Positions 19,714 through 25,126 of a DNA stretch of 41,273 bases are shown one piece after another. This DNA comes from Escherichia phage vB_EcoS_fTaEco01: sequence record MT711527.1. One strand, written 5' to 3'. Positions within the stretch are counted from its first letter, which is position 1, and each line of letters begins with the position of its first letter. The notes under the pieces were generated by a model. The model had not been told where the DNA came from. It was given only the letters and a program-made list of their open reading frames with translations, and searched no databases. The position numbers and the translations under genes are program-made.

Positions 19714-19767
19714 GGCAGCGGTTTCTCCGATGGATTCAGCAATGGTTTTAATTAAAGAGGACTCTAT

Positions 19768-22722
19768 ATGTCAAGCGGATGTGGTGACGTTTTAAGCCTG
19801 GCGGATTTACAGACCGCCAAGAAGCACCAGATTTTTGAAGCCGAGGTTATCACGGGTAAATCCGGCGGAGTAGCCGGGGGCGCAGATATTGATTACGCGA
19901 CAAACCAGGTTACAGGGCAGACCCAGAAGACACTACCTGCCGTGTTGCGTGACGCTGGTTTTAAACTGGCAGATTTTGATTTCACGTCAGGCGGTACACT
20001 ATCCGCTAACGACCGAAACACCGCAGTTTTGTGGCCGTCGTCCTCTGGTGGCGATGGGGATTGGTACCATTGGTTGGGCGCTCTGCCAAAAACTATCCCG
20101 GCGTCATCTTCTCCGCAGTCCACCGGTGGCGTGGCAGATGGGGCGTGGCAGCCTGTCGGGTCGGTCATACTGCGGCAGCAAATATCTGATGTAAACGGTG
20201 CAATTCTGTACCCAGATTTACATGTGGCGCGATGGAAGGACGAATACGACCCGCGCGCATGGGGCGCCGTGGGCGACGGCGTAACTGATGATACTCAATC
20301 TATTTTTAATGTATTAGCAGCTTCCCACAACAATTGGATTATAGACGGCAGGGGCTTGACTTATAAAGTTTCCCAATTACCTGACATTAGTAAATTTAAG
20401 AATGCTGCATTCGTTTACGAGCGCGTAGCTGGGCAACCGCTTACTTATGTAGCTGATGGCTTCTTTAACAGCTCACTAACTAAGGTGACGGATACCCCGT
20501 TCTACAACGCATGGACGCAGGATAAAACTTTCGTCTACGACAATGTTATTTACGCTCCCTTTATGGCCGGCGAACGACATGGCGTTCAAAACTTACATGT
20601 AGCTTGGGTTCGCTCTGGTGACGACGGGCAGACTTGGTCAATGCCTGAGTGGTTGACCCCAATCCATGCTGACTATAATGCTAGGGTTTCCGCGGACAGA
20701 GTTAACTACCACTGCATGAGCATGGGTACGTGCGGCAACCGATTATATGCAGTTATAGAAACCCGCTACTTATCTAATATGCGGATGAAGAAGGCAGAAC
20801 TTTGGTCACGCCCAATGCCGTATTTTAGACACCCAACCGGCGGAATAACTATTAGTTCTGGTTCCACTACTGCTACCATTGTTATAGAAAATCACGGCCT
20901 AAAAGCAGGAGATGCGGTTAACTTCTCTAATACATCGGCAACTGGCGTATCGGGTAATATGACGGTTGCGTCTATAATTAACCGAAATACGTTCACTGTT
21001 ACGCTCTCAAGCCCGGCGAGTTCCACCATAAACAATGCGGGTGTTACCTGGAACTTCGCAACGCGATTCTGGGACAGCCCGTGGGAAATTACCGAATTGC
21101 CTGGGGTAGCATACTCCACTAACGCTGATTTGTGTGTCACGGAGACACATAGTTTTGCGGTTATAGACGATGTTAACTACACTATCGCTGTCGGCTATCA
21201 CAACGGCGATGTGTCCCCTAGGCGTCTCGGTGTCTTGTATTTTAGTAACGTGTATGACAATCCTGGCGTATTCGTTCGTCGCACTGTCGCTCAGGCATAC
21301 GCTGATAACGCTTCTGAGCCGTGCGTGAAAAGTTATGGTGGTGTGTTATACCTTACCACACGCGGCACATTACCTACTTCCCCTGGCTCTACACTGGCGA
21401 TGAGCACCGATTCTGGGCAAAACTGGAGCTACTTGCGATTTCCGAACAATGTACATCACTCCAATCTTCCGTTCGCTAAAGTAGGTGACTATCTCTACAT
21501 CTTTGGTACAGAACGTGCCTTTGGTGAGTGGGAAGGTGGTGAGCAGGACAGCCGCTATGAAGGTTCGTATCCGAGGACCTTTATGTGCAAAGTTAATGTG
21601 TCGTCCTGGCCTTCATCTTTAGATGATGTTCAGTGGTTTAATATTACCGACCAAATATACCAGGGTCATATCGTTAACTCTGCTGTCGGCGTCGGCTCGG
21701 TCTGTGTTAAAGATGGCTGGTTGTACTATATCTTTGGTGGGGAAGACTTCTTCTCTCCCTGGAGCATAGGGGATAACAGTGCGAAGTTATGGTACAAACA
21801 TGATGGGCATCCGGCTGACTTATATAGCTACCGGATAAAGATTGAAGACCACCCGTATGTATCCCGTGATTTCAAATACGGAGCAACTCCTAACCGTACA
21901 CTACCTGTCGCCATGGGGGTAGATGGTGTACGTCATGTAGGGGCACCTTTAACATTTGATAATGATGTAAGCGTGTACTCACTGCATGTAACGGGGCTGG
22001 AATACGATGGTACACAACAGTCCGCCGTGCGTGCACAGTTTGATGGTGATTACGGGCTGATTTCAAAAACAGTCCCCACTAAAAACCCATCGGGTCAAAG
22101 ACTGATAGTTAGCGGTGGTGATGGTGCATCCAGTTCCGATGGTGCGTTGCTGCAACTGTACGGGGCAAACCATGCAACGCCTAACAGGGCTATTATGTAT
22201 GCGTCAGGAGGCTTCTACTCATACAACAATTTTCTTCCTTACTTAGACTCGCAAGTGTCTTTAGGTTCGGCAGGTAATAGGTGGACTACGGTGTACGCGA
22301 CCACCGGTACGATAAATACGTCTGATGGTACACTTAAGACGAATAAAGAGGAAATTGAGGGACAACTCCTTACCGCATGGGAAGATATACATGTAATATC
22401 TTTTAAGTGGCTTGAAAGCCTAGCAATCAAGGGTGACACTGCAAGGATACACTTCGGTGTGATAGCCCAAGATGTGCGAGACATCTTGGTCAACCATGGG
22501 CTTATGGAGAAAGATTCTACCGATTGTAAATATGCTTTCTTGTGCTACGACCCAATTGAAGCTGCGTATGATATTGATGAAGATGGCCAGACTGTACAAG
22601 TATCCCCTCCCGGCGGCAGATGGGGGGTTAGGGCGGACCAGATGTTCTTCATAGAGATTGCCTATCAGCGTAAGAAGATGCGCGAGTTCGAGAAGAGGCT
22701 GGCAGCACTAGAAGATAAATAA
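19768..22722 (+). CDS. tailspike / tail fibre with sialidase-like Asp-box (BNR) repeats and C-terminal intramolecular chaperone (peptidase S74-like) domain
   Basis: 984 aa; Asp-boxes SGDDGQTW and STDSGQNW; C-terminal region with TSDGTLK...IHFGVIAQDV... resembles self-cleaving chaperone domains of endosialidases and T5 L-shaped fibre; AAAGAGG RBS. Confidence 0.6.
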   Translation: MSSGCGDVLSLADLQTAKKHQIFEAEVITGKSGGVAGGADIDYATNQVTGQTQKTLPAVLRDAGFKLADFDFTSGGTLSANDRNTAVLWPSSSGGDGDWYHWLGALPKTIPASSSPQSTGGVADGAWQPVGSVILRQQISDVNGAILYPDLHVARWKDEYDPRAWGAVGDGVTDDTQSIFNVLAASHNNWIIDGRGLTYKVSQLPDISKFKNAAFVYERVAGQPLTYVADGFFNSSLTKVTDTPFYNAWTQDKTFVYDNVIYAPFMAGERHGVQNLHVAWVRSGDDGQTWSMPEWLTPIHADYNARVSADRVNYHCMSMGTCGNRLYAVIETRYLSNMRMKKAELWSRPMPYFRHPTGGITISSGSTTATIVIENHGLKAGDAVNFSNTSATGVSGNMTVASIINRNTFTVTLSSPASSTINNAGVTWNFATRFWDSPWEITELPGVAYSTNADLCVTETHSFAVIDDVNYTIAVGYHNGDVSPRRLGVLYFSNVYDNPGVFVRRTVAQAYADNASEPCVKSYGGVLYLTTRGTLPTSPGSTLAMSTDSGQNWSYLRFPNNVHHSNLPFAKVGDYLYIFGTERAFGEWEGGEQDSRYEGSYPRTFMCKVNVSSWPSSLDDVQWFNITDQIYQGHIVNSAVGVGSVCVKDGWLYYIFGGEDFFSPWSIGDNSAKLWYKHDGHPADLYSYRIKIEDHPYVSRDFKYGATPNRTLPVAMGVDGVRHVGAPLTFDNDVSVYSLHVTGLEYDGTQQSAVRAQFDGDYGLISKTVPTKNPSGQRLIVSGGDGASSSDGALLQLYGANHATPNRAIMYASGGFYSYNNFLPYLDSQVSLGSAGNRWTTVYATTGTINTSDGTLKTNKEEIEGQLLTAWEDIHVISFKWLESLAIKGDTARIHFGVIAQDVRDILVNHGLMEKDSTDCKYAFLCYDPIEAAYDIDEDGQTVQVSPPGGRWGVRADQMFFIEIAYQRKKMREFEKRLAALEDK

Positions 22723-22726
22723 AACT

Positions 22727-22750
22727 AAGGCCCCAAACGGGGCCTTTTCT
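22727..22750. terminator. bidirectional rho-independent terminator
   Basis: AAGGCCCC-AAAC-GGGGCCTT hairpin + T-run; separates convergent structural and replication blocks. Confidence 0.65.
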
Positions 22751-22888
22751 CTACTCTTCTGATAACTTCTCCAGTACAAACGCCAGTTGCGCATTAGCGG
22801 CGTCTCTCTGCTGCCGTAGCCGTATAACCTCCTCCTCAAGTTCCTTGATACGTTTTTGCAATGCCGGAATCGGGGCTATGATGTTCAT
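22751..22888 (-). CDS. hypothetical small coiled-coil protein (45 aa)
   Basis: ATG overlaps helicase stop (ATGA coupling); charged heptad-like sequence; below ORF-track length cutoff. Confidence 0.3.
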   Translation of the reverse strand: MNIIAPIPALQKRIKELEEEVIRLRQQRDAANAQLAFVLEKLSEE

Positions 22889-24309
22889 TTCTTACCTCGT
22901 CTCTTCATGTAATTAAGCAACTCTTCCTGGACCGATTTCTTCTCGTCAGTACGCGAGGCAACAACCTCGTCCAGCGTGTCTTTAGCAACGATGTGATAGA
23001 GGAACACTGGTCGCTCATGGCCCGCCTGCTTCTGGCGCACCGGGCCTATACGCTCGACAACCTGCAAATAGTGCTCAAGGTTCCAGCCTTGCGAAATAAA
23101 CGCCAGATGATGTCCGCCGTCCTGTAAATTCAAACCATGGCCGGCTGACGCGGGGTGAACGCACAAAATCTCGATTTCACCCCGATTCCACGCTTCCATC
23201 TGCTTATTACCTTTCGCACCTTTGGCAAACGCCTGCGCCTGTGGGAATCGCTTAAGGATGCGCTCCAGTTCGTGCTTGAACTGATAAGCCACAAGTAACG
23301 GTGCGCCCTGTAGCTCCTCAACAATCGACTCAAGCGCGTCCAGTTTCGTATCGTGTACTTTCTCCCAGTCTTTGGTTGCCTCACCGTCTGGCCCCGACAC
23401 ATATACGGCACCGGAGGCAATCTGCAAACACTTTGACGTCTTCGCCGCCGCGTTAGCCGCTTCAACTTCTCCGCTCTCCAGTTCCGCGAATAACTTCTCC
23501 TCCATATCTAGGTACGCCTGACGTGCCTTCTTCGGCAGGTCGATTTCAACCGGCACTATAATAGGTGCTTCACACCCAAACCACTCAGCGGCGTCAATAG
23601 TGAGACTAATGTCCTTCATCTTCTGGTGGATCTCATTATCTGCACCAGGACGCGCATGATACTCCCGCGCCATCGCCGACTTACCTTTCTGTACCGAGTT
23701 AAACCATCGGTCGGTGAATGCCGTATATGAGGACCCCAGGCGCTCGCCGGCGTCGATAAACCAGTTCTGACCCCACAGGTCCTTGAGGCCGTTTGGTGAG
23801 GGCGTGCCGGTAAGGTTTATAAAACGCTTAACCTTTCCAAACGCCACCTTACTGAGCGCCTTTGCCCGCTTGCTACCACCTGAACGGCTGCGGAATGATT
23901 TCAGCTTCGTGCTTTCGTCGGCGACGATAACGGTAAAAGGCCAGTCGTCTTTGCCGTAGTAGTCAATCAGCCATTCGATAACTTCGTAGTTTGTACACAC
24001 CACGTTAGCGTCTGATTCCAGCGCCGCGATGCGGCGCTTCTCTGAACCTGTCGCGTCTACGACACGCAGACATGGGAAATTCCATTTCTCTTGCTCTGCC
24101 GGCCATGTGCCGGACGCAACACGTAAAGGAGCCAGAATTAACACGCGGTCGTCGTCCGTAAGTTGCCCGTTGCGGAACAGGCGGTTTAAAGTCCACAGGA
24201 CGCTGCCAGTCTTCCCGGCGCCCATGCTCGCCCAAATATTACAGCGATGGTGCTGCAACATGAACGAGGTCATGAGCTTCTGGTATTCGCGCCTTTGAAA
24301 CTTACTCAT
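22885..24309 (-). CDS. superfamily-2 DNA helicase (SNF2/DEAD-like)
   Basis: Walker A SMGAGKTG, motif II VADEST, C-terminal helicase-domain-like region. Confidence 0.7.
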   Translation of the reverse strand: MSKFQRREYQKLMTSFMLQHHRCNIWASMGAGKTGSVLWTLNRLFRNGQLTDDDRVLILAPLRVASGTWPAEQEKWNFPCLRVVDATGSEKRRIAALESDANVVCTNYEVIEWLIDYYGKDDWPFTVIVADESTKLKSFRSRSGGSKRAKALSKVAFGKVKRFINLTGTPSPNGLKDLWGQNWFIDAGERLGSSYTAFTDRWFNSVQKGKSAMAREYHARPGADNEIHQKMKDISLTIDAAEWFGCEAPIIVPVEIDLPKKARQAYLDMEEKLFAELESGEVEAANAAAKTSKCLQIASGAVYVSGPDGEATKDWEKVHDTKLDALESIVEELQGAPLLVAYQFKHELERILKRFPQAQAFAKGAKGNKQMEAWNRGEIEILCVHPASAGHGLNLQDGGHHLAFISQGWNLEHYLQVVERIGPVRQKQAGHERPVFLYHIVAKDTLDEVVASRTDEKKSVQEELLNYMKRRGKK

Positions 24310-25126
24310 TTACGGCCCCCATAAACGCCTTTATAAATTCGGCGGCTACTTGCGGGACGATGGCATTGCCGTAACCGCGCAATCGTCCCACTCTTGCGGG
24401 TATCCCATTAGCCAGCGGGAATGCGCCGGGTTCAACCGGCCGGAACTTTCCATCACGGCATCCGAGCCAGTCAGCATCTGACCAGAAGCCGTGGTGCGGG
24501 TTGGTTGACTCGCTTTCAATCCCTGCTCTGTTGAGTAGTCCAGCCTGTCGAATGTTCTGTCCCTCCCGTCCGTGCGAATCACTGTCTCTCCGCTCCCTCT
24601 GAAGTCGTTCGCACACGGTGTTGGCCAGTTGCTGCGCTCCGAAGAACAATCGATTCCTTTTGTGCGGTGCGCCGACGCTACAAGCTGGGAGTACGGCAAA
24701 CCCGACGGCGTAGTCTTCTCTTTCCAGGTGAGTTTGTAAATCGCACATCCACGATTTTGCAATTGCTGCCGCAACCTGCTCCCCAAAGATAACTGGAGGG
24801 CGGCACTCGCTGATGAGGTCGAGGAACACAGGTGCGAGGTGTCTCTGGTCGAACTGTCCGAGTTGCTTTCCTGCCGTGCTAAACGGTTGGCAAGGCGGGC
24901 TTCCCGTCCAGAGAGGCGCATCTTCCGGAACTCCCGCAAGTCTGAGCGCGAGAGGCCAGCCGCCGATACCAGCGAAAAAATGACACTGGGTGAACCCGTC
25001 AAGGTCTTCTGGCTTAACTTCGGTAATGCTTCTTTCATCTACAACTCCAAAAGGTATGTGACCATGTTTTATTAATTCACGCAGCCACGCGGCTGCGCCT
25101 TTATCCCATTCGTTGTAATAGTTCAT
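24302..25126 (-). CDS. DNA (cytosine-5)-methyltransferase, short form
   Basis: Motif I FAGIGG, motif [11 protein letters not shown], motif VIII-like HKRNRLF, C-terminal GN; only 274 aa. Confidence 0.7.

Follow-up and report, generated by a model that had tools for sequence, protein, structure and literature searches.

The closest described systems to the tailspike analysed here are the endosialidases of other phages that infect Escherichia coli K1. Endolytic hydrolysis of α2,8-linked polysialic acid was demonstrated for the orthologues from phages K1H, JSSK01 (ORF40) and 63D, which share 97–98% protein identity with our protein; the same activity is predicted for it. Recombinant K1H depolymerase degrades purified K1 capsule and runs at 93 kDa "after proteolysis" (PMC5696595). 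For JSSK01 ORF40, immunogold labelling located the protein at the end of the tail, while the recombinant enzyme stripped the capsule, formed halos and agglutinated K1 strains specifically (PMC11641727). Machida 2000, as cited in PMC5380687, describes the 63D enzyme as specific for polysialic acid (K1) and as a homotetramer; the latter report conflicts with the trimeric model, which derives from the structures of K1F and phi92. This literature on orthologues is the source for enzyme activity, processing by proteolysis and tail-tip location. Our own analysis shows the arrangement of the domains, the conservation of residues, orthology and the genomic setting.

The window, the whole stretch of 41,273 nt under analysis, constitutes a near-complete Kagunavirus (Guernseyvirinae) genome, 98–99% identical to that of Escherichia phage vB_EcoS_fTaEco03 and colinear over its full length with Kagunavirus relatives at 97–99%. 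The gene under study almost certainly encodes the receptor-destroying endosialidase tailspike of a K1-capsule-dependent Kagunavirus, i.e. a siphophage of the K1G/K1H/63D type. Its features are as follows:

19755..19761, plus strand: ribosome-binding site (Shine-Dalgarno) AAGAGGA, 6 nt 5' of the ATG, read from the sequence
19768..22722, plus strand: open reading frame of the predicted tailspike endosialidase precursor, ATG start, 984 aa, 108.0 kDa, TAA stop included
19768..20181, plus strand: N-terminal virion-anchor module, aa 1–138, matched by phrog_29731 over aa 1–138 and common to tailspikes with other catalytic domains
20056..20160, plus strand: Tail_spike_N (PF18668) motif region, aa 97–131, Pfam E = 1.3e-13
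20266..20466, plus strand: endosialidase N-terminal extension, aa 167–233, PF12218, E = 4e-37, profile positions 1–67 of 67
20467..21846, plus strand: catalytic six-bladed β-propeller, aa 234–693, PF12217 (End_beta_propel), E = 1e-222, profile positions 1–367 of 367
20818..21066, plus strand: β-barrel domain within the propeller, aa 351–433, PF12195, E = 1.8e-41, profile positions 1–83 of 83
20614..20637, plus strand: Asp-box 1, SGDDGQTW, aa 283–290, fully invariant in K1H, JSSK01, 63D, phi92 and K1F
21403..21426, plus strand: Asp-box 2, STDSGQNW, aa 546–553, core S546, D548, G550 and W553 invariant across six endosialidases
20578–20580 (H271), 21220–21222 (R485), 21316–21318 (E517), 21361–21363 (R532) and 21514–21516 (R583), plus strand: codons of the putative catalytic residues, mapped to endoNF of phage K1F
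21847..22320, plus strand: stalk or tail-spike domain, aa 694–851, including R838 (22279–22281), PF12219, E = 2.3e-74, profile positions 1–160 of 160
22318..22323, plus strand: predicted autocleavage site T851|S852, from alignment to T910|S911 of endoNF
22321..22719, plus strand: C-terminal intramolecular chaperone domain, aa 852–984, 15.2 kDa, with S852 as predicted nucleophile and K857 (22336–22338) as predicted general base, from PF13884 and 3GW6

The original prediction had placed a tailspike of 984 aa at 19768–22722, and the reading frame indeed runs there from ATG to TAA on the plus strand, with a ribosome-binding site annotated at the equivalent place in the 63D record. The tail spike family phrog_1171 matches the protein with E = 1.4e-291. 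Assignment as a tailspike is further borne out by the N-terminal Guernseyvirinae anchor and by the position of the gene, directly downstream of a J-like tail-tip gene coding for an 837-aa protein that matches phrog_469/phrog_31 (tail / central tail fibre J), in a locus syntenic with those of K1G and fTaEco03.

At the nucleotide level the gene is 99.9% identical to the gene annotated as "tailspike endosialidase" in fTaEco03, 98.3% to that of K1G, 97.4% to that of K1H and 96% to the endo-N-acetylneuraminidase gene of phage 63D; annotated endosialidase genes in about 20 Kagunavirus genomes, most of them from phages isolated on K1 strains, fall between 95 and 99.9%. Whole-protein identity amounts to 98% for K1G and K1H, 97% for JSSK01 and 63D, 75% for phi92 gp143 and 51% for K1F. 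The Kagunavirus endosialidases of K1G, K1H, 63D ("Phage #D", AB015437), JSSK01, fTaEco03, fKuEco01 and ULINTec2 share with our protein the length of 984 aa, the gene position, the five-module architecture, 97–99.7% protein identity and the E. coli K1 host type. The fTaEco03 protein differs at only 2 unambiguous residues, while K1G differs at 15 and 63D at 28, in scattered substitutions that affect neither a catalytic nor a cleavage residue.

Two more distant endosialidases are structurally characterized. The phi92 enzyme endoN92 (gp143; 4HIZ) is 75–79% identical in propeller, β-barrel, stalk and chaperone, but belongs to a 148-kb myovirus and carries another, shorter N-terminal attachment region. 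K1F endoNF (1V0E, 3GVL, 3JU4, 3GW6) shares fold, domain order, both Asp-boxes, the catalytic residues and the S/K/R autocleavage machinery, whereas it is a podovirus spike of 1064 aa whose N-terminal capsid-binding domain is T7 gp17-like and whose chaperone has longer insertions in the "tentacle" region.

The N-terminal part relates the protein to a different set of phages. In tblastn, aa 1–138/147 displayed 60–73% identity to the tailspikes of Jerseyvirus (SETP13, L13, SETP5) and of K1-independent Kagunavirus, and the nucleotide matches of these phages end at query nt 250–393. With this anchor and a locus 3' of the tail-tip gene, the protein groups with the Guernseyvirinae (Kagunavirus/Jerseyvirus) tailspikes. 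Those of SETP13, L13 and the K1-independent phages share the anchor (aa 1–138) and the place after the tail-tip gene, but carry unrelated catalytic modules, P22-like endorhamnosidase or of pectate-lyase type, which target O-antigen instead of the K1 capsule (PMC11641727). The Tail_spike_N motif region (aa 97–131) recurs in the N-terminal part of K1F endoNF, where the alignment reveals a conserved DGDWYxWxGxLPK...GAW..VG block.

Downstream of the anchor, all four endosialidase Pfam domains and Peptidase_S74 scored above their cut-offs in canonical order, the four endosialidase domains being matched end to end. The sialidase-type β-propeller that had been proposed from the sequence thus proved to be the six-bladed propeller of endosialidases. 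The two canonical Asp-boxes, SGDDGQTW and STDSGQNW, from which it had been proposed were found within this propeller at aa 283–290 and 546–553, aligned with those of K1F, phi92 and 63D. They are the sole matches to SxDxGxxW in six frames over the entire window, while from amino-acid composition about 0.015 matches would be expected in our protein. By alignment, H350, R549, E581, R596 and R647 of endoNF, a list of catalytic residues taken from PMC12632334, correspond to H271, R485, E517, R532 and R583, and all five are invariant across six endosialidases.

Comparison with endosialidase structures, which the original prediction had put forward as a check, yielded in phmmer a match of aa 166–851 to 4HIZ, the crystal structure of the phi92 endosialidase (PMC6116203), with E = 0. 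The K1F endoNF structures 1V0E and 3GVL matched with E of about 1e-229, and all three structures align with the tailspike over the whole crystallised region. Since, besides the match to 4HIZ, there is an annotated gene that is 99.9% identical in nucleotides, fold and family can be considered settled. Propeller type, the two Asp-boxes, active-site residues, β-barrel and stalk domain are all those of a phage endosialidase (endo-N-acetylneuraminidase, EC 3.2.1.129; CAZy GH58).

The C-terminal segment had been likened to the chaperone of endosialidases and T5 L-shaped fibres, and both similarities were recovered. Peptidase_S74 (PF13884, "Chaperone of endosialidase") matches aa 852–912 with E = 7.8e-13 (49 bits, the cut-off being 22), and the K1F structure 3GW6, which comprises chaperone domain plus stalk, matches aa 754–984 with E = 2.2e-57. 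Further structure matches of the chaperone domain are 3GUD, from the neck appendage of GA-1 (E = 1.8e-10), and 4UW8, from the L-shaped fibre of T5 (E = 1.6e-6). T5 pb1, the GA-1 appendage and eukaryotic MYRF possess a homologous autoproteolytic chaperone with a Ser-Lys dyad (PMC4690869, PMC3742443), but unrelated passenger domains, and similarity is confined to aa 818–984. Self-cleavage of this domain, likewise proposed beforehand, is supported at the sequence level by an intact dyad. The endoNF cleavage residues R897, S911 and K916, whose roles are described in PMC8326128 and PMC3828593, correspond to R838, S852 and K857 and are conserved, with S852 and K857 invariant in the six-enzyme alignment. 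In domain family, Ser-Lys dyad and stalk Arg, the protein conforms to the Peptidase S74 / CIMCD group. The phi92 record places the boundary between mature peptide and CTD at the position aligned with T851|S852, and the chain crystallised in 4HIZ has as its last residue the one aligned with T851. Cleavage at this site would leave a mature protein of 92.8 kDa, which agrees with the 93 kDa of the processed K1H depolymerase.

We propose a model, based in its trimer-dependent cleavage step on homology to endoNF, in which the 108-kDa precursor would assemble into a homotrimer, with the chaperone domain (aa 852–984) nucleating folding of the triple-β-helix stalk. Upon correct assembly of the stalk, R838 of the neighbouring chain would complete the S852/K857 dyad, and the chain would cut itself between T851 and S852, releasing a 15-kDa chaperone fragment and leaving the 92.8-kDa mature spike. 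Held at the tail tip via its N-terminal anchor (aa 1–138), the mature spike would bind α2,8-linked polysialic acid through the propeller (aa 234–693, with E517, R532, R583, H271 and R485), the β-barrel and the stalk and hydrolyse it endolytically, so that the phage could bore its way through the capsule of E. coli K1 and reach the cell surface.

Many β-propeller glycosidases carry Asp-boxes, and weak Pfam matches to BNR_2 (E = 0.025) and BNR (E = 0.48) would also fit a generic BNR/Asp-box glycosidase, such as a GH33-type exo-sialidase or another β-propeller hydrolase, in place of an endosialidase. However, both matches are sub-threshold (14.4 bits against a cut-off of 31.4 and 11.1 against 27), while End_beta_propel, with a cut-off of 24 bits, reaches 739 and the endosialidase-specific models are matched over their full length. 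Considering in addition the 79% identity to a crystallised endosialidase and the conserved endoNF active-site residues, the protein falls outside the exo-sialidases and generic BNR-repeat glycosidases (GH33-like), and we ruled out this practically negligible candidate. Hardly more credible is a catalytically dead fibre that merely binds, or a spike that keeps its C-terminal domain without autoproteolysis. Inactive polySia-binding endosialidase variants do exist as engineered reagents (PMC5380687), but nothing specific supports such a state here, and it is contradicted by the fact that the stalk Arg, both dyad residues (Ser and Lys) and all five residues of the active site are invariant, as well as by the orthologue K1H, which is active and processed to 93 kDa (PMC5696595).

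A broadened linkage specificity has more in its favour, although we consider it rather unlikely as well. The catalytic part of our protein is much closer to phi92 endoN92 (79% in tblastn; 75% over the whole protein) than to K1F endoNF (52%), and endoN92, with high α2,8 and some α2,9 activity, is described as an enzyme that cleaves the K92 polymer as well as that of K1 (phi92 record; review PMC10975011). Because of this closeness to a bifunctional enzyme, there is a small chance that endosialidases of the 63D/K1G type might also cut α2,9 linkages and act non-processively, in which case the phage could also use K92-type capsules with alternating α2,8/α2,9 linkages. If true, this would be a cryptic siphophage ability against K92-type or other mixed-linkage polysialic capsules. 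Against α2,9 activity stand the close relatives, which were isolated on K1 strains and are described as K1-dependent, and JSSK01 ORF40, reported as K1-specific in agglutination tests (PMC11641727). The literature searched contained no report of a 63D-type enzyme being assayed on α2,9 linkages, and sequence alone does not determine whether specificity is restricted to α2,8 or extends to α2,9. Nothing in the sequence argues against the preferred reading as a K1 endosialidase.

Immediately downstream of the gene, a terminator scan detected a further element:

22727..22746, no strand assigned: G+C-rich hairpin AAGGCCCC-AAAC-GGGGCCTT, bordered on both strands by T-runs

Its RNA fold has an energy of −15.5 kcal/mol (z = −4.4), and none of 200 shuffles was as stable. 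It likely serves as a terminator in both directions, lying between the tailspike gene and the replication genes that converge on it from the minus strand. Elsewhere in the window, a frame embedded in the methylase gene resembles distant phages in tblastn, which at first suggested an overprinted gene. This evidence was rejected, since in a six-frame control stop-filled frames scored equally well or better; the resemblance hitch-hikes on the methylase frame. A tRNA scan of the window found none.

The capsule depolymerase of the original prediction, considered there as possibly acting on polysialic acid, is in keeping with the experiments on the near-identical enzymes of K1H, JSSK01 (ORF40) and 63D. 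Since the gene family is already sequenced, annotated and assayed, and a homologue of about 79% identity is crystallised, the biology is known and the prediction constitutes a confirmation, not a discovery. Receptor and uses of the enzyme are already established for K1H, 63D and JSSK01, and no open question becomes newly testable. The value lies in annotation: the window represents a K1-capsule-dependent Kagunavirus with E. coli K1 polysialic acid as primary receptor, which is of use for the choice of phage-therapy candidates and for deploying the enzyme as a reagent in diagnostics or against virulence.

The gene at 19768..22722 (+) is a single open reading frame of 984 codons, running from an ATG, preceded by a good Shine-Dalgarno sequence (AAGAGGA, 19755-19761), to a TAA stop codon. 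The tailspike endosialidase that it encodes is already known: about 20 sequenced phages have the gene annotated, assays have been done on purified orthologues, and a crystal structure exists for a homologue about 79% identical. Nucleotide identity of the gene reaches 99.9% with the 'tailspike endosialidase' of Escherichia phage vB_EcoS_fTaEco03 (fTaEco03), followed by fKuEco01 (99.7%), ULINTec2 (99.6%), K1G (98.3%), K1H (97.4%), the endo-N-acetylneuraminidase gene of 'Phage #D' (63D, 96.0%) and JSSK01 (95.4%). Only 4 nt, one of them an N in the fTaEco03 record, and two unambiguous amino acids separate it from fTaEco03. We additionally observed that this closest record (MT711528.1) carries an N at gene nt 812, within codon 271 of the catalytic histidine, where the window reads CAT (H271).

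Six Pfam domains above curated cut-offs and two Asp-boxes were located in the protein:

aa 97-131, Tail_spike_N (Pfam, E = 1.3e-13)
aa 167-233, End_N_terminal (Pfam, E = 4e-37)
aa 234-693, End_beta_propel, whole profile (Pfam, E = 1e-222)
aa 283-290, nt 20614-20637 (+), Asp-box SGDDGQTW
aa 351-433, End_beta_barrel, nested in the propeller (Pfam, E = 1.8e-41)
aa 546-553, nt 21403-21426 (+), Asp-box STDSGQNW
aa 694-851, End_tail_spike (Pfam, E = 2.3e-74)
aa 852-912, Peptidase_S74, 'chaperone of endosialidase' (Pfam, E = 7.8e-13)

Both Asp-boxes are present letter for letter as in the original prediction, and they are the sole matches to SxDxGxxW across all six frames of the window, a motif expected about 0.015 times in this protein by its composition. 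In a search of solved structures, residues 166-851 matched chain 4HIZ_A, the phi92 endosialidase (PMC6116203), with E = 0 and no large gaps, as well as the K1F endosialidase endoNF (1V0E, 3GVL; E about 1e-229). Residues 754-984 matched 3GW6, the uncleaved stalk and chaperone domain of endoNF (E = 2e-57), and the last 130-170 residues gave weaker matches to the GA-1 neck appendage 3GUD and the T5 L-shaped fibre 4UW8. Together with Peptidase_S74, the 3GW6 and 4UW8 matches bear out the resemblance of the C-terminus to the chaperones of endosialidases and T5 L-shaped fibres proposed from the sequence.

Numbering could be transferred from endoNF by two protein alignments of the window tailspike with K1G, K1H, JSSK01, 63D, phi92 gp143 and endoNF. 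The residues that serve catalysis and substrate binding in endoNF, H350, R549, E581, R596 and R647 (PMC12632334), correspond to H271, R485, E517, R532 and R583. For autocleavage, endoNF has its scissile bond at T910|S911, its general base at K916 and its stalk arginine at R897 (PMC3828593, PMC8326128), which correspond to T851|S852, K857 and R838. Every one of them is invariant in the six sequences aligned. The mature-peptide boundary in the phi92 GenBank record, beyond which the C-terminal chaperone domain lies, and the end of the 4HIZ chain as crystallised both align with T851|S852. Cleavage at this bond is predicted to yield a mature chain of 92.8 kDa and a fragment of 15.2 kDa, and recombinant K1H depolymerase runs at 93 kDa 'after proteolysis' (PMC5696595). 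A generic BNR glycosidase is contradicted by the endosialidase models, which match, whereas the BNR and BNR_2 Pfam models stay below threshold on this protein; a dead, binding-only fibre is contradicted by the invariant catalytic residues, and a non-cleaving C-terminus by the conserved cleavage residues.

By homology with endoNF, whose mechanism is established, the precursor would form a trimer in which the C-terminal domain serves as template for the triple β-helix, and an arginine from the neighbouring chain would complete the Ser-Lys site in the correctly folded trimer only, so that self-cleavage, which would free the chaperone domain, signals successful folding (PMC4690869, PMC3742443, PMC3828593, PMC8326128). 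The mature spike, attached at the tail tip, would then cut α2,8-polysialic acid endolytically. Activity is documented for orthologues: the K1H enzyme degraded purified K1 capsule in vitro and rescued infected mice (PMC5696595), while JSSK01 ORF40, which immunogold labelling localised to the end of the tail, stripped capsule, made halos and specifically agglutinated K1 strains (PMC11641727). For 63D, PMC5380687 cites a characterisation of the enzyme by Machida et al. 2000. The proposal of a polysialic-acid depolymerase tailspike with a self-cleaving chaperone is therefore supported, by endosialidase domains and conserved residues, by activity of orthologues, and by the conserved Ser-Lys dyad and arginine and the agreement of 92.8 kDa with processed K1H.

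Citing Machida 2000, PMC5380687 gives the 63D endosialidase, a 97% identical protein, as a homotetramer, in contrast to the K1F and phi92 homologues, which are trimers in crystals. Since the chaperone-domain mechanism also needs a trimer, the tetramer is likely a historical mis-assignment. The catalytic part is far closer to the phi92 enzyme endoN92, described as cleaving K1 and K92 polymers alike (phi92 GenBank record; PMC10975011), than to endoNF, which makes some additional α2,9 activity conceivable, though we consider it unlikely.

Four bases past the tailspike stop, a perfect 8-bp G+C-rich hairpin (22727-22746; -15.5 kcal/mol, z = -4.4) with T-runs on both strands divides the late (tail) genes, tailspike included, from the convergent minus-strand early (replication) genes, and is likely a bidirectional terminator. 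Gene order, identical in K1G and fTaEco03, runs from the tape measure through small tail genes, an 837-aa J-like tail-tip protein and the tailspike to the convergent helicase/C5-methylase/VRR-NUC/DNA polymerase block. Because it is colinear from coordinate 1 with the complete genomes of fTaEco03 (41,972 bp) and fKuEco01 (40,825 bp) at 97-99% identity, the window looks like an essentially complete Kagunavirus (Guernseyvirinae) genome, opened at the conventional start that they use. A tRNA scan of 1-41273 found none. Next to the hairpin, a 45-aa ORF (22751-22888 (-); MNIIAPIPALQKRIKELEEEVIRLRQQRDAANAQLAFVLEKLSEE) of charged, heptad-like sequence overlaps the helicase stop codon with its start by 4 nt (ATGA); it is a hypothetical protein in the fTaEco03 record and longer (61 aa) in K1G.

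A 230-aa ORF (24346..25038 (-)) lies wholly within the 274-aa C5-cytosine methylase gene (24302..25126 (-)), on the same strand in another frame. Annotations for the two exist in K1G ('Mte8-like') as well as fTaEco03, and two separate PHROG 'DNA methyltransferase' families, phrog_363 and phrog_1008, match one each. In the six-frame control, frames with 8-14 stop codons gave equally significant tblastn matches, so similarity is no evidence for translation of the embedded frame and is ruled out as proof of an overprinted gene. Three distant phages, Klebsiella ZX4, Edwardsiella eiAU-183 and Xanthomonas FoX4, likewise have both frames open, and in FoX4 the embedded frame is annotated and the methylase frame not; this repeated openness alone hints at a real overprinted gene.

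Over residues 1-138, the tailspike is 60-73% identical to the N-terminal ends of K1-independent Kagunavirus spikes and of spikes from Jerseyvirus phages, SETP13, L13 and SETP5 among them; the catalytic parts of these spikes are unrelated. Nucleotide matches are confined to the start of the query in those phages (nt 1-250 or 1-393) and to nt 407-2955 in phage XY1, which places the recombination boundary near aa 131-138. The catalytic module also occurs in phages with other types of virion:

phi92/phAPEC8-type myoviruses, 79% identity
one podovirus, P64441, 68% identity
K1F-type phages, 52% identity
K1E/K1-5-type phages, 50% identity
Mannheimia phages, 37% identity

A K1F-like endosialidase tailspike (52% identity, full catalytic query) was also seen in IME207 (NC_031924.1), named a Salmonella phage with Klebsiella pneumoniae as listed host. 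To our knowledge, neither bacterium is known for K1-type polysialic capsules, and the host may be mislabelled or the receptor may be an unexpected one. In the Mannheimia haemolytica A2 phages 587AP1 and 1127AP1 (KP137434.1, NC_047750.1), 'tail fiber protein H' aligns with the endosialidase propeller at 37% identity, covering 74% of the catalytic query (E = 8e-90). Given this match and the polysialic-acid capsule that M. haemolytica A2 makes, judging by PMC3724679, these proteins are probably endosialidases not annotated as such, in phages of a host other than E. coli. The pattern of anchor and catalytic parts fits the textbook picture of module exchange among tailspikes (PMC5380687).
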